Part shown: piece by piece, positions 3,255-51,158 of the stretch | Position numbering within the stretch: the first letter of the stretch is position 1 | How the letters are laid out: each line of letters opens with the position of its first letter | Assembly (NCBI GenBank): GCA_002840305.1 | Contig: PHAI01000001.1 | Span: forward strand, 112,074-176,073 | Direction: 5' to 3' | DNA: 64,000 nt | From: Candidatus Falkowbacteria bacterium HGW-Falkowbacteria-1 | GTDB taxonomy: Bacteria; Patescibacteriota; Patescibacteriia; Patescibacteriales; UBA12465 | Made by a program: the position numbers and the translations under genes | The notes under the pieces: model-generated | The model's database searches: none | Told to the model about the DNA's origin: nothing | What the model saw: the letters and a program-made list of their open reading frames with translations, nothing else

Positions 3255-4676
3255 ATGCTTAATAAAAAACAAAAAGCTTTTACACTTATTGAATTATTAG
3301 TGGTAATAGCTATTATAGGTATTTTGGCTACTCTAGCGGTTGTAGCTCTACAGCAAGCCAGACAAAATGCTAGAGACGCAAAAAGAGTGGCGGACATGAA
3401 ACAGGTCTCCACTGCTTTAGAATTGTTTTTTAGTGAAAATGGTAGATATCCAACAACTGATGAGTGGAACAGTGGCGCTATAACCTCTTCTAGTACAGGG
3501 GAAATATTTATGTATAGCATTCCTGTTGCCCCAACCCCTGCTGATGGAAATTGCTCTCCCGCCTCTAATACTTATGCCTACATTCCTGTTGATAATGGCA
3601 ATAGTTATGCCATTAATTTTTGTATTGGAAAACAACTTTCAAATCTTAATGACGGAGCCAAGACAATGATCCCTGGTGGTATAGTTGATTATAGTGGCCA
3701 ACTAGAAGAAGAGCCAGGGGGTTGTTTGCCAGAATGTTCTGAGGGTTATATTTGTAATGAAGGAGAATGTGACCTTGTTGCTTGGGTTGAGCAATCACTT
3801 TCTGGTTCAAGAGAATGGTATTCTATAACCTCATCTTCTGATGGTACTAAATTGGCGGCGTGCGCTATGAATGGTTATATTTATACCTCTTCTGACTCAG
3901 GCCAAACTTGGGTGGAGAGAATTTCTGCTGGTTCAAGAAGCTGGGCGGCTATAAGCTCTTCGTCCGACGGAACAAAGCTTGTAGCGGTTAATAATTATTC
4001 TGGTGGAAGTAGTGGCGGGTATATTTATACCTCTTCTGATTCTGGACAGACCTGGGCAGAGAGAACGTCTTCTGGCGAAAGAAGTTGGGAAGGAGTAACC
4101 TCGTCTTCTGACGGAGTAAATTTGGCTGCCGTGGCTTACAATAGTGATTATATTTATACGTCAGATGACTCCGGTGTAACATGGACTGCCAGAACTTCGG
4201 CTGGAGCAAGAGATTGGGACACCATTGATTCTTCTTCTGACGGCTCTATGTTAGCAGCCATCAGTGAATGTGGGTATTTATATACATCTTCTGATTATGG
4301 GGTTACCTGGGTAGAGCAAACTTCTCTTGGGTCAAAATGTTGGAGTTCAGTTGCTTTTTCTTCTGACGGAGAAAGAGCCGTCGCCGTGGCCGCTACTCTT
4401 GATAGTGTTTATGTTTCTTCTGACTTTGCTCAAACGTGGACAGAAAAAGCATCTTCTGGATCAAGAGCTTGGTATTCAGTTTGCTCATCGTCCGATGGAA
4501 GAAAAATATTTTCCGCCGTTTGGGGTGGCTATATTTATGCATCCTATGATTATGGCGAAACATGGGTTGAACAAACTCCTTCTGGCGCAAGAAACTGGGT
4601 TGATATTTCTTGTTCAAACGACGCCAACGAAGTGTCCGCTGCCGTTAACAATGGGTATATATATACCTACAGATAA
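3255..4676 (+). CDS. Type IV pilin-like protein with a C-terminal 7-blade BNR/Asp-box beta-propeller
   Basis: The N-terminus is a prepilin domain ([30 protein letters not shown]). A Cys-rich linker follows, then about 7 repeats each carrying the S-x-D-x-G-x-T-W Asp-box (YIYTSSDSGQTWVE…SSSDG…). Confidence 0.7.
   Translation: MLNKKQKAFTLIELLVVIAIIGILATLAVVALQQARQNARDAKRVADMKQVSTALELFFSENGRYPTTDEWNSGAITSSSTGEIFMYSIPVAPTPADGNCSPASNTYAYIPVDNGNSYAINFCIGKQLSNLNDGAKTMIPGGIVDYSGQLEEEPGGCLPECSEGYICNEGECDLVAWVEQSLSGSREWYSITSSSDGTKLAACAMNGYIYTSSDSGQTWVERISAGSRSWAAISSSSDGTKLVAVNNYSGGSSGGYIYTSSDSGQTWAERTSSGERSWEGVTSSSDGVNLAAVAYNSDYIYTSDDSGVTWTARTSAGARDWDTIDSSSDGSMLAAISECGYLYTSSDYGVTWVEQTSLGSKCWSSVAFSSDGERAVAVAATLDSVYVSSDFAQTWTEKASSGSRAWYSVCSSSDGRKIFSAVWGGYIYASYDYGETWVEQTPSGARNWVDISCSNDANEVSAAVNNGYIYTYR
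3780..4673 (+). repeat. In-frame tandem repeats (~126 nt each, about 7 copies) encoding the BNR propeller blades
   Basis: Nucleotide words recur (tatatttatacctcttctga…, tcttctgacgg…) and the protein shows repeated YxSSDxGxTW…SSSDG blades. Confidence 0.7.
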
Positions 4677-15774: not shown

Positions 15775-18279
15775 ATGTTTAATCCTAAAAAAAATCTAAA
15801 ATTGATTATTTTTTTTGTTTTTTTGTTTTCATTGGCGTTTATATTTATTGATAGCAATGCTTTATTGGCTGCTACGACTGACAGTTTGGGAATCAATGCC
15901 GTTGACAGTGAAATAGTATTAGCGAGTACTGACCCGAGGACGGTTGTTGTTAGAATAATCAATATTTTTTTGGGAATTCTTGGTATTGTAGCGGTTTCTT
16001 TAATTATTTTTGCTGGTTTTACTTGGATGACATCTGAGGGTAACGAAGAAAAAGTAAGCAAAGCCAAGGGCATATTAAAGAGCGCTGTGGTTGGATTGAT
16101 TATTGTTTTATCTGCTTGGGGAATAGTTTCTTTCATTTTTAAGGAAATAGCTGGTGGTGGTTCTGAGTCTAGTTTACAAAATAGCAATTCTTCTTTTTTT
16201 CAGAATGGCATTGGGGCGGTCGGGGCTTGTACAGTCGAAAGTGTTTATCCCGAGCCAGGTCAAAAGAGTGTTCCTAGAAATACAATGATAATGATAACCT
16301 TTAAAGAGGAAGTCTCGTCTAGCACGGTACTTGCCAATTCTTCTATATGCTTAGAGCAAGAATTTTCTTTTGAAGATCAAACATGCTCAAATCCTGTTGA
16401 TTTTAGTTTAAGCACTGAGGATAATAAAATATTTGTGATATTTCCTAATTCCTTGCTTGGGAATGAAGATGGCTTTTCTTCTTATGTTGTTTATTTCTCG
16501 AATGATGTTTTAAAGCTTGACGAAAGTGAATCAATATTTGATACTTGCGCCCCTCAATATTTATTGTGGAACTTTGAAGTTAGTAATCAGCTTGATTTGA
16601 CGCCACCAAAAATAGAAAGTATTTTTCCTCAAGCCGACAACCAAAAGGATCAGCTTGAAACAAGTTCTTTATTGGAATATGCAGAGGCTCAAATAAGTGT
16701 TGTTGGTATTCCTAATTATTTCAAACCAGCTGAAATTACTTCTGTAACTAGTGGTGGAGGAACATCCTCTAGCGCCTCTGGCGAGATTAACCCAAATTAT
16801 AACGGAGAATATACTAACTTTACAGTGACTATCCCAACTGGCGCCGACAACAAAGCTCAATTAATGGGAGGTTCAGTTAATTTAGGAGCTTTTGACATTA
16901 TAGAAAATAAGGTTAATTTTACTAATTATTTTTCTCTTGAACTAGAGGAAGGATTTTCTCCTGGCAACTCTTGGAGCGTCCAGGTCAAAAAAATGGTTCC
17001 AGCTGATAAAATAAAAGTTGGTCCATACGAGTATACTTTTATAGATGGCGATACTAATTCTTATAATATAGGAGTTAGGGCTAGTAATATTGGTCAAGCA
17101 GAGCAAATTTATATAGCTTTGAATGATCACCCGAATGTAGATGTTTCTTATTCTTCTAACGTTATAAGCTTGGTGGCTAAAACCGGAGGCTCTTCTGGAA
17201 ATTCAATAGCCCTGCAGTCCTATACTGACAAAATACAAGTCGTAGAATTTAGTGGTGGGGCTGATAGGGTGGATAGAATAATTGTTGGAGATAAAAAGGA
17301 CAAACCAATGAACGCTACTATTCAAATAAATTTTAATGAAGCTATAAACCCATTGACCGTTTCTGGCACTAGTGCAGAACTTGAAGACTATCTTAGGGTT
17401 ATTAATGTGTCAGACGGCGGATCAATAGTAAGCGGAAAATTTGTTATTTCTTCAAATTATAAAACGGTTGAATTTGTGTCAGACTTTAAGTGTGGCGCCA
17501 ATAGTTGTGGTGGCGATGTTTTTTGTTTGCCGGCTAATAGTAATATAAAAGTGGAAGTTGTGGCTGCTGGATTGTTTGATTGTGAGGGGGATGGTATTAA
17601 TTGTGCAAATAAGAGTCCGTTCGTAAATTGTCCAGTTAATATTTGTCAAAATGACGAGGGCAAGAGATACCCTTTGTCTGCAATGCCGGCAAGCGGGGCG
17701 ATGGATTCTTCCGCTAACTCTCTTGATGGAAATGGTGATGGTTATTCTTATGGACCGGCTTCTTATTATTATAAAAACCAAGCTAACCCTTTAACTGGAG
17801 ACAGTTTTTCTTGGTCTTTTTGGATAAATGATAAAATTGATTCAGAGCCGCCAGTTATTTTAGAATTTACTCCAACAACTCCCGCCAACTTATTTAGTTC
17901 AATAGAGATTATTTTTAACAAGCTTATTTCAACTGATAGTCTTAGAACCGGGCAAACCTTAATAGAAAGCGGAGAAGAAAGTGTTGCACATAATAGAATA
18001 AATATATTAAGTGGTCAGTTGGTTGGATATTGGATAAGCTTTGAAAACCAGGATACTAATCCCGTGGACGGGGATCCTGATAGAACGAAGGTCTTTATAA
18101 ATCATGCTAGATTTTTTGAGGGTGCTGGTTATAGGTCTCAAGCTGGTTCGGGGGTTAAAGATATTTATCAAAATTGTTTTAAGCCTAGTGCTAGCATAAA
18201 TTGTAATGCCAACCCCCTAAATCCGTCTTGTTGTGATGGAAGTCCTAGTTCGGGAGCTGACTGTTCGACCGCTGATTAA
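15775..18279 (+). CDS. Large secreted protein: N-terminal TrbC/VirB2-like double-TM pilin domain fused to Big_5-type Ig-like domains and a Cys-rich module
   Basis: Signal/TM, then AGFTWMTSEGNEEKVSKAKGIL, then a second TM, paralogous to the 50787..51158 protein. Downstream are PEPGQKSVPRNT…ITF and TPPKIESIFPQ (Big_5-like), then CGANSCGGDVFC…CEGDGINC…CPVNIC. Confidence 0.6.
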   Translation: MFNPKKNLKLIIFFVFLFSLAFIFIDSNALLAATTDSLGINAVDSEIVLASTDPRTVVVRIINIFLGILGIVAVSLIIFAGFTWMTSEGNEEKVSKAKGILKSAVVGLIIVLSAWGIVSFIFKEIAGGGSESSLQNSNSSFFQNGIGAVGACTVESVYPEPGQKSVPRNTMIMITFKEEVSSSTVLANSSICLEQEFSFEDQTCSNPVDFSLSTEDNKIFVIFPNSLLGNEDGFSSYVVYFSNDVLKLDESESIFDTCAPQYLLWNFEVSNQLDLTPPKIESIFPQADNQKDQLETSSLLEYAEAQISVVGIPNYFKPAEITSVTSGGGTSSSASGEINPNYNGEYTNFTVTIPTGADNKAQLMGGSVNLGAFDIIENKVNFTNYFSLELEEGFSPGNSWSVQVKKMVPADKIKVGPYEYTFIDGDTNSYNIGVRASNIGQAEQIYIALNDHPNVDVSYSSNVISLVAKTGGSSGNSIALQSYTDKIQVVEFSGGADRVDRIIVGDKKDKPMNATIQINFNEAINPLTVSGTSAELEDYLRVINVSDGGSIVSGKFVISSNYKTVEFVSDFKCGANSCGGDVFCLPANSNIKVEVVAAGLFDCEGDGINCANKSPFVNCPVNICQNDEGKRYPLSAMPASGAMDSSANSLDGNGDGYSYGPASYYYKNQANPLTGDSFSWSFWINDKIDSEPPVILEFTPTTPANLFSSIEIIFNKLISTDSLRTGQTLIESGEESVAHNRINILSGQLVGYWISFENQDTNPVDGDPDRTKVFINHARFFEGAGYRSQAGSGVKDIYQNCFKPSASINCNANPLNPSCCDGSPSSGADCSTAD

Positions 18280-29847: not shown

Positions 29848-30312
29848 ATGACAAAACAAAAGAAAGGTTTTACCTTGATTGAGTTGTTAGTAGTTATTGC
29901 CATTATTGGTATCTTGGCTACTTTAGCTGTTGTAGCATTACAACAAGCTAGAAAGAATGCTAGAGACGCAAAAAGAATTGCAGACGTTCGTCAAATGCAA
30001 ACTGCATTGGAATTGTATTTCAATGATAATCAGTTTTACCCTCCGACAGATGAGATTGCCGCTGGTGGTGAAATCGCTACTAATGGAGTAACTTATATGA
30101 ACATCGTTCCTACAGCCCCTACACCGGCTGATGGTACTTGTGACGCTGGTACAAACGCTTATACTTACACAGGCACCGGAACAGCAGTTGGCGATGCTTG
30201 GGGAAGTTATACTGTTGATTTTTGTTTAGGTGGTCAAACTGGTGGTCTTGCAGCAGGTGAAAAATGTGCTACACCTGGTGGAATCATCGATGATGCTTGT
30301 GAAAATCTATAG
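29848..30312 (+). CDS. Type IV pilin-like protein (prepilin with short leader)
   Basis: MTKQKKG|[28 protein letters not shown] is the prepilin leader and N-terminal helix. The body is paralogous to the first ~150 aa of the 3255..4676 protein. Confidence 0.7.
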
Positions 30313-32655: not shown

Positions 32656-32953
32656 ATTTTTATTTTGTTTTAGGAAGCTTTTAGCGAATTAAAAGAAACA
32701 AAAAAAGACTCGTTTTTAGTTTTTTGAGAAAAAGAGTTTGTCTTTATTTTTATGTAAGATTTTATTTTACTTATTTTGTTTAAAATGCTCATAATTGCTG
32801 AGTTTCCTAATAACCTTTTAATTTTAAATTTAAACTGTTTTTATTATAGCAAAGGCTTTTATTTTTGTAAAGAAGCTTTTTTGGGGCGCTTTTATTTATT
32901 TTATTTTTGTGGTATATTACTGTTGTGTTGTTTATATAATTAATGTTAAACAT

Positions 32954-35134
32954 ATGTTCAAAATGCCTAATTTTAAGCTAAAGCCGTTTATTATTATTTT
33001 TTTTATCGTTGTTATCGCTGTTTCTTTCTTGTTTTTGAAAATACAGCAAAAATATCAGGCTAGAAACTTTGTTGATAGTAATCCTAGCGGTGATAACTCC
33101 CCGGAGGTAGCCAGTCTGAGTCCCAAATATTCTTCAAAAATAAAGAAATTTGCTGATGTTGCCGATTTTAGCTCTTTCATTGAAAAAAATCAGGTTAATT
33201 TTGAAAATAATTATCTAAAAAGATCGGACATGGCCATGGACATAGCCTTTGCTTCGACAGAGTCTCTTGATTCTTCTCTTGCCAACAATGAAATGGTTGG
33301 CGGAACCGATTTTTCTTTAACGAACGTTCAAGTCCAGGGCGTAGACGAGGCCGATATTGTTAAAACTGACGGATCTTATATTTATTATGTCTCTGAAAAA
33401 ACTTTATATATAGTTGAGGCTTACCCAGTAGAAAATAATAAAATTTTAAGTAAATTAGAATTTGATTCTTATTTGTCGGATATTTATATCAAGGGAGACA
33501 GTTTGGTTGTTTTTGGTAACGAAGGCTTTAATTATGGTATGCCGAAAGATAGACTAGCGATGAGCATAGGTATAATGCCACCAATGTCCAACAGTGTTTT
33601 TTTACAGGTTTTTAATATATCAGACAAAACTAATCCTATAAAAGAAAAAGATTTGAAAATGGATGGATCTTATTTTGATTCTCGCTTGATAGGCGATTAC
33701 CTTTATTTCCTTGTTAACAATTATAATTATTATGGTCAAGGATTGCCAAGAGTTTCATACCAAGACAAAGAGTTAAATTTTAATTGTCAGGATGGTTTAA
33801 AATGTGCTCCTTCGAATATCTATTATTTTGATAATTATTATGATAATTTTAATTTGACTAGTGTAACCTCCTTAAATATAACAGATTTTAATAAAGAGCC
33901 AGAAAGTAATTTTTATTTGCTTCCTGCCGGACAAAATCTTTATGTGTCTCAAAATAATATTTATATTACTTACACTAAATATTTAAACGAGTATGAAGTA
34001 GAAACTGATGCTTTGTTGGAGATCATTTATCCTCGTCTATCAGAAAATGACAGAAAAATTGTTGATGAAATAAATTCTGCTTCAGAAAATATTTTGACTT
34101 TAAGTGAAAAAAGAAGCAAAGTTAGAAGGATTTTGGATTTATATATCAATTTTTTAAGTTTAGCCGAAAGAGAAGCCTTGCAGAAAGATTTGGATAATAA
34201 AATAATGGAAAAATATCCTAATATTTTGGAAGAGCTGGAAAAAACTGTTATTCATAAATTGGCTGTTTTTGAAGGTGCCGTTGAACCTATTTTTATGGGC
34301 GAGGTCTCTGGGTCTGTTTTAAATCAGTTTTCGATGGACGAATTTGATGGTTTCTTCCGAATGGCCACAACTAAAAATAGAAGTTGGTCAAGATTCGCAA
34401 GCCTTGAAACTGATTCTTATAACAATGTATATGTGTTAGATTCAAATTTAGAATTAACTGGTGAAATAAAAGGATTGGCCGAAGGCGAAAGGATATATTC
34501 TGTTCGATTCATGGGTGACAAGGCCTATGTTGTAACATTTAAGCAGGTTGATCCATTATTCTCAGTTGATTTAAGAGATCCTTATAATCCGAAAGTTTTA
34601 GGCGAATTAAAGATTCCAGGATTTTCTAACTATCTTCATCCTTATGACAATAATACTTTGATTGGTTTTGGAAAAGAAACTCAAGAAGAGTCAGACGGAA
34701 GAGTTATAACCGGCGGTCTAAAGTTGTCGTTATTTGATGTTTCTTCTGATGAGCCCAAGGAACTTGATTCTTATGTAATCGGTGACCTTGGTAGTGATTC
34801 AATAGCCTTATACGATCATCGAGCCTTTCTCTTTTCGAAAGACAAGAATCTACTTGCTGTTCCGGTTGTCTTAAGAGAGAGCGCGGGCGATAATTCGTGG
34901 GGCGATATTTCTTTTAACGGTTTGTTGGTCTTTAATATTATTGATAACAAATTTGTTTTGAAGGGACAAATAGATCATTTATTGTCGGAAGGAACAAACG
35001 AGGCTTATAATTATGAAGACTCTGTTAAAAGAGGACTCTATATTAAAGAGTATTTTTATAGCTTGTCCGATAATTTTATCAAAATAAACGAGATCAAAGA
35101 TCTAAAGGAAGCCTTGTCTATAAAACTAAAATAA
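32954..35134 (+). CDS. Secreted/membrane-anchored beta-propeller domain protein
   Basis: A signal/TM segment is followed by repeated strand-rich segments (GVDEADIVKTDGSYIYYV, …YIK…) typical of the Beta_propel-type family. Start moved to the first ATG. Confidence 0.45.
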   Translation: MFKMPNFKLKPFIIIFFIVVIAVSFLFLKIQQKYQARNFVDSNPSGDNSPEVASLSPKYSSKIKKFADVADFSSFIEKNQVNFENNYLKRSDMAMDIAFASTESLDSSLANNEMVGGTDFSLTNVQVQGVDEADIVKTDGSYIYYVSEKTLYIVEAYPVENNKILSKLEFDSYLSDIYIKGDSLVVFGNEGFNYGMPKDRLAMSIGIMPPMSNSVFLQVFNISDKTNPIKEKDLKMDGSYFDSRLIGDYLYFLVNNYNYYGQGLPRVSYQDKELNFNCQDGLKCAPSNIYYFDNYYDNFNLTSVTSLNITDFNKEPESNFYLLPAGQNLYVSQNNIYITYTKYLNEYEVETDALLEIIYPRLSENDRKIVDEINSASENILTLSEKRSKVRRILDLYINFLSLAEREALQKDLDNKIMEKYPNILEELEKTVIHKLAVFEGAVEPIFMGEVSGSVLNQFSMDEFDGFFRMATTKNRSWSRFASLETDSYNNVYVLDSNLELTGEIKGLAEGERIYSVRFMGDKAYVVTFKQVDPLFSVDLRDPYNPKVLGELKIPGFSNYLHPYDNNTLIGFGKETQEESDGRVITGGLKLSLFDVSSDEPKELDSYVIGDLGSDSIALYDHRAFLFSKDKNLLAVPVVLRESAGDNSWGDISFNGLLVFNIIDNKFVLKGQIDHLLSEGTNEAYNYEDSVKRGLYIKEYFYSLSDNFIKINEIKDLKEALSIKLK

Positions 35135-43904: not shown

Positions 43905-43975
43905 CTAATCTTTTTCTTTTGTCATCTTGACCGAATGAGGAGAGTGGCGACAAGCGATCAAAGAGATCTGTAAAC
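43905..43975 (+). repeat. Partial copy (5' arm) of the small repeat element family A
   Basis: ctttttcttttgtcatcttgaccgaatgagg…gagatctg matches the 5' half of the 47745..47866 element. Confidence 0.45.
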
Positions 43976-47739: not shown

Positions 47740-47744
47740 GATTT

Positions 47745-47866
47745 TTCTTTTGTCACCTCGACCGAATGAGAGGCGAAGCGACGAATGAGTGGAGATGGTT
47801 AAAACATCAAGAAGCAGATCTCTCTATTCGTCATCCGCAGGATGGCTCAGTCGAGATGACAAAAGG
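47745..47866 (+). repeat. Small repeat element family A, complete copy with terminal inverted repeats (MITE-like or structured RNA), immediately upstream of tRNA-Thr
   Basis: The 5' arm ttttgtcacctcgac pairs with the 3' arm gtcgagatgacaaaa at 14 of 15 positions. The inner pair is gacgaatgag/ctattcgtc. Confidence 0.55.
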
Positions 47867-50683: not shown

Positions 50684-50786
50684 AAGATAAACTTAAAGGA
50701 CGAAGAAATTCGTCCTTTTTTATTTGCTTTTTTTTGAAAATATTGTTATCATATTAATAGATTTTAAATTTTTTAAACTTTATAAT

Positions 50787-51158
50787 ATGATTAAAAAAAT
50801 ATTTTCTTATTTTTTGTTGATATCATTTTTCTTTTTGGCCTCTTCTAGTTTGGTTTTTGCACAAGCCGATCAAAATAACCCCCCTGCATCAACGGCGGTT
50901 AGTCTTTCTAATCCTTTAGGCGCAGGAGCTACAGCTCAAAGCGTTATTGGAAATGTTATCAGCCAGGTATTGGGCGTTGTTGGAGCCCTGGCCTTAATCA
51001 TGTTTATTTATGGAGGTCTTACTTGGATGACTGCGATGGGCAATGAACAACAAATAAAAAAAGGTAAAGATATTTTGATGTGGGCTACATTAGGGTTGGT
51101 TATAATTTTCTCGTCATACGCTTTAGTTAAATTTGTTTTACAAGCCATCGGCGCATAA
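50787..51158 (+). CDS. TrbC/VirB2-like pilin-domain protein (signal peptide + two TM helices)
   Basis: The signal peptide MIKKIFSYFLLISFFFLASSSLVFA is followed by GGLTWMTAMGNEQQIKKGKDIL and a second TM. It is paralogous to the N-terminus of 15775..18279. Confidence 0.55.
   Translation: MIKKIFSYFLLISFFFLASSSLVFAQADQNNPPASTAVSLSNPLGAGATAQSVIGNVISQVLGVVGALALIMFIYGGLTWMTAMGNEQQIKKGKDILMWATLGLVIIFSSYALVKFVLQAIGA

Follow-up and report, generated by a model that had tools for sequence, protein, structure and literature searches.

A pilin module and a beta-propeller in one protein

We analyzed a stretch of 64,000 nucleotides (here called the window) from contig PHAI01000001.1 of Candidatus Falkowbacteria bacterium HGW-Falkowbacteria-1, an uncultured, ultra-small groundwater bacterium. 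A Pfam scan of 40 open reading frames (ORFs) in the window placed murA, rplU, recR, ybaB and dnaB around a gene whose 473-amino-acid (473-aa) product carries a type IV pilin module at its N terminus and a seven-bladed beta-propeller at its C terminus (Table 1). Only two class III signal peptides were found in a six-frame motif scan of the window, one in this protein and the other in a plain, 154-aa pilin. The fusion of a pilin to a propeller had been proposed in a first-pass annotation made from the sequence, and it was borne out by the intact ORF and by the agreement of Pfam, NCBIfam, AlphaFold2 and Foldseek. The AlphaFold2 model of the whole protein, based on a 61-sequence alignment, had a mean predicted local distance difference test (pLDDT) score of 92.9.

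The N terminus, in which MLNKKQKA precedes FTLIE, has all of the features of a class III signal: a basic short leader, Ala at position −1, a hydrophobic N-terminal segment and Glu at mature position 5. PF07963 (N_methyl) matched residues 4 to 28 with 38 bits against a cut-off of 21.2 (E 1e-9), TIGR02532 (NCBIfam) scored 32.6 bits against a cut-off of 16.3, and the NCBIfam matches to GspG, PilA and ComGC were partial, below threshold and limited to the N-terminal 60 to 70 residues. Modeled separately (residues 1 to 153; pLDDT 88.7), the module showed a helix over residues 11 to 62 and four or five strands. All of the 17 highest-ranking Foldseek matches of this model in the PDB were pilins or pseudopilins (EpsG/GspG, PAK pilin, PulG and those of Shewanella and C. 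difficile), with probabilities of 0.8 to 0.99 but modest E-values of 6e-3 and weaker. Residues 1 to 145 are 55% identical to the plain pilin encoded 26.6 kb downstream (E 9e-53), as the first-pass annotation had recognized, and the 5′ regions of the two genes are 80% identical over 132 nt (DNA repeat family D2). The length of 161 aa that it gave for this paralogue counts from an upstream TTG (29827); from the ATG at 29848 the protein has 154 aa, as in PKM91705.1. As modeled, the N-terminal part can be accepted as a true pilin module.

The head of the module is closest, in both fold and sequence, to the major pseudopilins of the GspG/EpsG type, and relatives are labeled “type II secretion system protein” in databases. 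Both observations would suit a pseudopilin of a type II secretion system (T2SS) or Com system rather than a component of a type IV pilus that is adhesive and retractile. We regard this as improbable. PilT, a retraction ATPase that marks retractile type IVa pili, is present in the genome (P0257, on a 568-kb contig). To our knowledge, Patescibacteria lack an outer membrane and a secretin-based T2SS, and a bulky propeller of 300 residues would be hard to fit with a short periplasmic pseudopilus.

Between the two modules, the pLDDT score falls below 50 at residues 149 to 154, and a hairpin with strands at residues 165 to 168 and 171 to 174 follows, in a segment that contains the cysteines C157, C161, C167 and C172. 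The first-pass annotation had described this linker as EGF-like, which we found to be unsupported, as the segment is a beta-hairpin with four cysteines and no EGF family was among the Pfam matches. The motif C-x-P-x-C-x-x-G-Y-x-C also bridges pilin and effector in P0003, P0012, P0014, P0018 and P0245.

The C-terminal domain was modeled with seven sets of A-D strands and with pLDDT scores mostly above 95 (95 to 99), so that the propeller predicted from the repeats appeared as a closed, seven-bladed fold. Its repeat units start at residues 177, 219, 267, 310, 352, 395 and 437, are 37 to 48 aa long and have a mean pairwise identity of 48% in protein and 59% in DNA; a DNA repeat finder recovered six copies at a spacing of 126 to 144 nt (D1). 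The units share G-x-[RK]-x-W before strand A, SSSDG in the A-B turn and an Asp box in the C-D turn. Seven repeats, each with its own Asp box, had been described; the count of units held, but only six Asp boxes are present (S-x-D-x-[G/A]-x-T-W, at residues 212, 260, 303, 345, 388 and 430), the fifth with Ala in place of Gly. The seventh blade has no Asp box, and its fourth strand is supplied by the N-terminal strand W177-E179; completion of the last blade by an N-terminal strand is the usual way in which propellers are closed. BNR_6 matched the whole protein with 52.6 bits (E 1.8e-14) and the isolated domain with 58.5 bits (E 2e-16), both above the cut-off of 27. With six Asp boxes, a BNR_6 match above cut-off and a seven-bladed model, the C-terminal part is, by prediction, a closed seven-bladed propeller of the BNR/Asp-box type.

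Two possible origins of repeat variation were considered and rejected. Recent tandem amplification of the blades is contradicted by their DNA identity of only 59% and by Tandem Repeats Finder, which reported no array. As for a target of a diversity-generating retroelement, the window contained no template/variable repeat pair that included the gene.

The fusion is conserved and is not an assembly artifact. Six contigs encode exactly this protein. Among them are JGI Ga0246092_1000074 (302,033 bp) and ENA ERZ27239242 k141_9293, and in these two the ORF is identical to ours over 1422/1422 nt; the two assemblies are separate, although the samples may be the same or related. Among the 120 best homologues, 21, from many samples, combine a class III signal peptide with the same propeller, and several of these share the C-x-P-x-C-x-x-G-Y-x-C linker. 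Two fusions, P0021 and P0022, are positional orthologues from two metagenomes, each lying between infB and rbfA. The G+C content at third codon positions (GC3) is 0.293, matching that of murA, dnaB, recA, ftsK, eno and gyrB. Identical ORFs in separate contigs, homologues of the same architecture, positional orthologues and a native GC3 together establish that the fusion is real. A frameshift or a chimeric assembly that joined separate pilin and propeller genes thus has a negligible chance of being the explanation: no support for it was found, GC3 is uniform along the gene, and AlphaFold2 is confident over the whole chain. The NCBI metagenome-assembled genome (MAG) does contain such an error in another pilin gene, P0245, but there it works in the opposite direction and splits one gene. 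Horizontal acquisition, suggested by a G+C content of 42% against 33%, was also rejected, because the excess lies in codon position 2, where it reflects amino acid composition, and GC3 is native.

The exact 473-aa sequence is absent from the protein collection that we searched, which gave no self-match; it was the gene-position index that placed it on the six contigs. The closest protein match is 63% identical, and none higher was returned. A scan of GTDB species-representative genomes for a close relative gave distant matches only, at 36% identity or less. The protein with 63% identity, P0012 (341 aa), is encoded on a JGI contig of 9,997 bp. It shares the carrier and the four-cysteine linker, but its stop codon comes after about four blades; either the gene is truncated or the propeller is completed by oligomerization.

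Table 1. The modular pilin gene, its paralogues in the genome and other features of the window. Positions without a locus name are those of the window; locus names begin with L.
Feature	Position	Strand	Size or residues	Description and basis
Modular pilin gene, complete	3255..4676	+	473 aa	Intact ORF, stop codon 4674-4676; four-cysteine linker and seven-bladed propeller
Leader	3255..3278	+	residues 1-8	MLNKKQKA, basic and short; predicted prepilin-peptidase cut after Ala8; PF07963 and TIGR02532 matches
Mature N-terminal alpha-1 helix	3279..3440	+	from F9	Glu at mature position 5; AlphaFold2 secondary structure, helix 11-62
Globular beta-sheet head of pilin module	3441..3692	+	residues 63-146	Cys100-Cys123 pair; model and Foldseek
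Linker	3693..3782	+	residues 147-176	Flexible acidic stretch, then four-cysteine beta-hairpin C157-x3-C-x5-C-x4-C172; AlphaFold2
BNR/Asp-box beta-propeller	3783..4673	+	residues 177-473	Seven blades; AlphaFold2, Foldseek, BNR_6
Plain pilin, free-standing paralogue (PKM91705.1, CVU82_00650)	29848..30312	+	154 aa	No C-terminal module; candidate major subunit; N_methyl match, exact match to NCBI protein
P0022	568-kb contig		448 aa	Propeller
Unnamed pilin	L010:6021-8315, 568-kb contig, 1.7 kb upstream of pilT		764 aa	BNR-repeat region of ~600 aa, ~2x that of the 473-aa protein
P0241 (PKM91675.1, CVU82_00490)	L001:3308-4300		330 aa	DUF1566/Lcl_C-like domain
P0245	L013:10001-11968		655 aa	Four-cysteine linker; two DUF1566/Lcl_C-like regions, intervening stretch called Fn3 by UniRef
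Type IV secretion system-type protein	15775-18279	+	834 aa	VirB2/TrbC-like pilin domain and Big_5 Ig-like domain
Propeller protein	32909-35134	+	741 aa	Beta_propel PF09826 (E 3e-148); hydrophobic N-terminal segment
Direct repeat	43911-43951 and 47742-47782		41 nt	83% identical
Separate type IV secretion system pilin	50724-51158	+	144 aa

The carrier family and its effectors

The genome encodes at least six paralogous pilins (Table 1), one of them plain, three carrying propellers (one of these a double propeller, as we read the BNR-repeat region of the 764-aa protein from its sequence) and two of the DUF1566 type. Five of the six have the same first 27 mature residues, from which P0245 differs at three positions, and Glu5 is kept in all six. 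The five modular carriers are 63 to 72% identical to one another but only 56 to 59% identical to the plain pilin (58% for the 473-aa protein). Since the carriers are closer to each other than to the plain pilin, the effectors appear to have been swapped on one specialized carrier lineage. The propellers of the paralogues have diverged further than their carriers (44 to 52% against 68 to 72% identity), and in relatives the same carrier is also joined to a Fib_succ_major domain (P0248).

The residue at position −1 of the 473-aa protein had been singled out as unusual, because Ala rather than Gly precedes the mature Phe (KA before FTLIE). The Ala is indeed there, but it is no oddity. Among the 21 pilin-propeller fusions, Ala and Gly are found at −1 in 10 and 11 proteins, respectively, and the plain pilins among the pilin-module matches have 74 Gly and 27 Ala (n = 101). 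PilD cleaves after either glycine or alanine, according to Imam et al. (PMC3244431). Longer pilins among the matches show 7 Gly and 15 Ala, so that Ala is commoner in long (modular) pilins (Fisher's test, p = 4e-4, uncorrected for shared ancestry). Position −1 is also precisely where the positional orthologues P0021 (Gly) and P0022 (Ala) differ. Judged by these sequences, Gly and Ala are interchangeable at −1 in this pilin lineage, and Ala is no anomaly. In Pseudomonas, mutagenesis of the pilin reportedly showed Ala to be the only substitution tolerated at −1, at the cost of reduced cleavage. We speculate that, if reduced cleavage holds here, Ala could keep modular pilins scarce.

A C-terminal pair of cysteines (K-C-x-T-P-G-G-I-x3-4-C) is kept in the plain pilin, P0022 and P0245; both cysteines are lost in the 473-aa, 330-aa and 764-aa pilins (compare window positions 3660-3692 with 30270-30309). 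The ENA and JGI assemblies have P0245 intact, and in the NCBI MAG it appears as three proteins of 108, 205 and 238 aa (CVU82_02525-02535), a three-way split that indicates frameshifts or assembly errors in the latter.

The modular pilin genes are scattered, and each lies alone beside housekeeping genes for translation or the cell wall; their neighbors at loci L001, L003, L005 and L010-L013 include rplU, infB/rbfA, S1/ftsH/rpmF, rplA and alaS/infA-rpmJ. The recurrence of translation genes may merely reflect small genomes that are rich in housekeeping genes. The gene for P0241, which has Ala at −1, lies among glycosyltransferase genes, ~2.4 kb upstream of window position 1 and 6.7 kb upstream of the 473-aa pilin gene. 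We rejected conserved synteny with pilus genes, because every fusion examined stood alone among housekeeping genes; even the gene for the 764-aa paralogue, which is near pilT, lies within a conserved housekeeping block. In a relative (L005), the RadC...PilT synteny block of L010 is kept, but the 764-aa gene is absent and a pilin-propeller gene, P0003, occupies a different slot. This difference between L005 and L010 implies that modular pilin genes have been gained and lost at different sites.

In both genomes, a gene for an RVT_1 reverse transcriptase (~405 aa) lies two genes downstream of pilT (L010:12437-13657 and L005:13103-14314); in L010 an unannotated 566-aa ORF and a gene for a PLDc_2 protein come next. 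The RVT_1 gene could belong to a retron, a group II intron or a diversity-generating element.

Proposed display on a pilus and the likely role of the propeller

We favor the view, with a probability of roughly 0.6, that the 473-aa protein is a modular type IV pilin that displays a non-catalytic, ligand-binding propeller on a pilus. Prepilin peptidase would remove the basic leader after Ala8, and the alpha-1 helix, which matches four of the other five paralogues, the plain pilin included, over 27 residues without a difference, would allow copolymerization into the same filament by the type IV pilus machinery. The flexible linker, stiffened by its four-cysteine hairpin, would keep the propeller off the filament, most likely at the tip. 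There the propeller would bind a surface ligand, most plausibly a cell wall glycan or a glycoprotein of a host cell, and so attach what is probably an epibiotic Falkowbacterium. Retraction driven by PilT could then draw the two cells together.

The tip is one of two places where such a subunit could sit. The carrier is a near copy of the plain pilin, with an identical 27-residue alpha-1N segment and 58% identity overall, and this likeness is the basis for supposing instead that propeller pilins are incorporated along the whole filament, where they would compete with the plain pilin and the four other modular paralogues and give rise to a mosaic pilus. We think this arrangement unlikely. If it were true, the composition of the mosaic pilus would set the host range of the epibiont, and the choice of Gly or Ala at −1 could tune processing for each paralogue.

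It is similarly doubtful that the protein never enters a pilus and is a surface-anchored binding protein which has borrowed a pilin signal and is held in the membrane or in small non-filament assemblies, for which the sugar-binding proteins of the archaeal “bindosome” of Sulfolobus offer a comparison. That the gene and all of its examined relatives are orphans among housekeeping genes, in a window without assembly genes, would fit such a protein. However, the full pilin head is kept and is 56 to 72% conserved across the six paralogues, and the identity of alpha-1N in five of the six, together with Glu5 in all six, suggests selection for filament packing. In addition, the genome encodes PilT, and orphan pilin genes are normal (PMC3244431).

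The proposal that the propeller binds a ligand draws on the company that related propellers keep, on their nearest relatives, on the failure of tests for enzyme families and on published precedent (see below). In other phyla, related propellers are linked to domains typical of surface proteins (Ig-like, Fn3, InlB B-repeat and peptidoglycan-binding). Among solved structures, the nearest relatives of the propeller family by sequence, from phmmer searches of the PDB, are binding proteins, Ycf48 and sortilin, and not enzymes; for our propeller they are Ycf48 proteins, with E-values of about 3e-5 to 1e-4. Foldseek likewise returned Ycf48 (5oj3) as the best PDB match (E 8e-15, TM [template modeling] score 0.72 on the target), followed by lobes of GH74 xyloglucanases and generic seven-bladed propellers. 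By convention in propellers, both conserved turns lie on one face and the variable B-C and D-A loops on the other, usually ligand-binding, face. From the order of its secondary structure elements, the 473-aa protein would likewise present its conserved turns and its variable loops on opposite faces; the B-C loop of blade 2 bears a 6-residue insertion.

The Asp-box propellers also include sialidases and GH74 xyloglucanases, and this raises the question of whether the pilus might display a hydrolase, sialidase-like or GH74-like, that cuts host surface polysaccharide. GH74 lobes are among the top fold matches, the 764-aa paralogue is read as having two tandem propellers, as GH74 enzymes do, and there is a weak NCBIfam match (52 bits) to “F510_1955 family glycosylhydrolase.” We nevertheless consider an enzyme very unlikely. 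The F510_1955 score is far under the cut-off of 175, and the domain has seven blades, against six in sialidases, and no [FY]RIP/RIP (FRIP/RIP) motif, while BNR_2 scored 16 to 17.5 bits against 31.4, so that membership in GH33 failed. Membership in GH74 failed as well, because a single propeller lacks the two-lobe GH74 cleft, to which each lobe contributes a catalytic Asp, identity to GH74 structures is 13 to 17% and the phmmer search of the PDB with the 473-aa protein returned no GH74 chain. The only GH74 or GH33 hit in any of the phmmer PDB searches was a marginal sialidase (E 9e-4) for the 764-aa paralogue.

Several observations weigh against the favored view of a pilus-borne binding propeller. 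The G-x-R-x-W and SSSDG motifs may be purely structural, and no ligand site can be identified from the sequence. The carrier's likeness to the plain pilin would fit a position at the tip or along the filament alike. No pilus assembly genes lie beside the gene, either here or in the four relatives examined: as the first-pass annotation had noted, the window lacks genes for an assembly ATPase or platform protein, and we detected no T2SSE, T2SSF or Peptidase_A24 domain (pilus ATPase, platform protein and prepilin peptidase, respectively) among the 40 ORFs scanned with Pfam. Of the pilus machinery of this genome only PilT was located; PilB, PilC and PilD did not turn up in the profile scan, which covered those 40 ORFs of the window.

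Relation to known pilins and significance

Modular pilins, as defined by Raynaud et al. in 2021, are widespread and were proposed to be tip-located adhesins (PMC8179133). In S. sanguinis, PilB bears a vWA module and PilC a lectin module (PMC8179133, PMC9934059), and the former has been proven to act as an adhesin (PMC8179133). The 473-aa protein fits the definition, with a pilin module at residues 1 to 146, a linker at 147 to 176 and a BNR propeller at 177 to 473, so that its class III signal and pilin module are connected through a short linker to a bulky domain unrelated to pilus biology. Unlike the modular pilins studied so far, it has a seven-bladed Asp-box propeller as its effector and a disulfide hairpin as its linker. 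Its carrier, which has 58% identity to a plain pilin encoded in the same genome, is common to at least five modular paralogues, and the genes of its family are scattered rather than placed in a pil operon, which also sets it apart.

An InterPro census published with the definition lists IPR012902 with five BNR repeats and IPR012902 with a Ycf48-like domain (IPR028203), in one protein each, and many of its modular pilins come from candidate phyla, including Falkowbacteria (PMC8179133). The combination of a pilin and an Asp-box propeller is therefore already cataloged, but it has never been discussed or studied in any pilin. The 21 fusions among the 120 best matches suggest that it is far commoner than those two entries.

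Functionally, the protein has its nearest precedent in PilX2 of Nanosynbacter lyticus TM7x (Saccharibacteria), a minor pilin that ends in a heptabladed propeller (PMC11623550). Deletion of pilX2 reduced host binding from 10.6% to 4.6% while filaments were kept, sugars inhibited binding, and PilX2 was proposed to be a glycan-binding tip adhesin (PMC11623550). Like PilX2, the 473-aa protein comes from Patescibacteria and joins a pilin N terminus to a heptabladed beta-propeller. Compared by description rather than by sequence, the two differ in that PilX2 has RCC1 repeats, whereas our propeller is of the BNR/Asp-box type and no RCC1 family was among its Pfam matches. PilX2 also has no predicted PilD signal peptide and is encoded in a pilus locus beside the major pilin, in contrast to the canonical signal and orphan gene described here.

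PilY1/PilC of Pseudomonas and Neisseria provides an analogy only: it places a seven-bladed propeller with variable adhesive modules at the pilus tip (PMC8179133). PilY1 is not a pilin, is held at the tip by a minor-pilin complex and has a propeller of another family, whereas the 473-aa protein is itself a pilin; no PilY1/PilC family was found among its Pfam matches at E <= 1. By these analogies, it would work in a manner akin to PilX2 and perhaps to PilY1, as a member of neither family. The first-pass suggestion of a pilus-tip or minor pilin that serves as an adhesin or carbohydrate binder fits both the modular-pilin concept (PMC8179133) and the role of PilX2 (PMC11623550), and by analogy may hold for this protein too.

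The propeller shares seven blades, and Asp boxes in hairpin turns, with Ycf48/HCF136, the GH74 lobes and the Vps10 domain of sortilin. It differs from Ycf48, to which its identity is 15 to 19%, in that its blades add a second conserved turn (SSSDG) and G-x-R-x-W. Membership in the Ycf48/HCF136 family failed on score, with 20.2 to 22.9 bits against 27 for PF14870 (PSII_BNR) and 21.6 against 326 for NF010237 (PRK13684). Ycf48 is a photosystem II assembly factor, a cellular context unrelated to that of the 473-aa protein.

Elsewhere in the window (Table 1), the 834-aa protein and the 144-aa pilin of the type IV secretion system type would, on sequence grounds, belong to a second, unrelated filament system, in which a subunit is seemingly also fused to an adhesin-like region. 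The 741-aa product is another large surface propeller protein. The two copies of the direct repeat are both intergenic and lie 3.8 kb apart, one of them ~90 nt upstream of tRNA-Thr(GGT).

A large part of bacterial diversity belongs to the Patescibacteria, whose cultivated members, as far as we know, all live attached to host cells. How they recognize their hosts is largely obscure outside a few oral Saccharibacteria, in which type IV pili and a propeller pilin have been implicated (PMC11623550). The results described here extend the established concept of modular pilins and overturn nothing. They add that the pilin-propeller architecture is common in Patescibacteria, that at least five effector pilins, three of them with propellers, share one carrier, that a four-cysteine hairpin serves as a shared adapter and that Gly or Ala may stand at −1. 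The genome is small (the three largest contigs that we saw total about 1.2 Mb), and yet at least five of its genes are given to effector-bearing pilins on a single carrier. This set of modular pilins provides concrete, testable candidates for the determinants of host recognition in a lineage without a cultured member.

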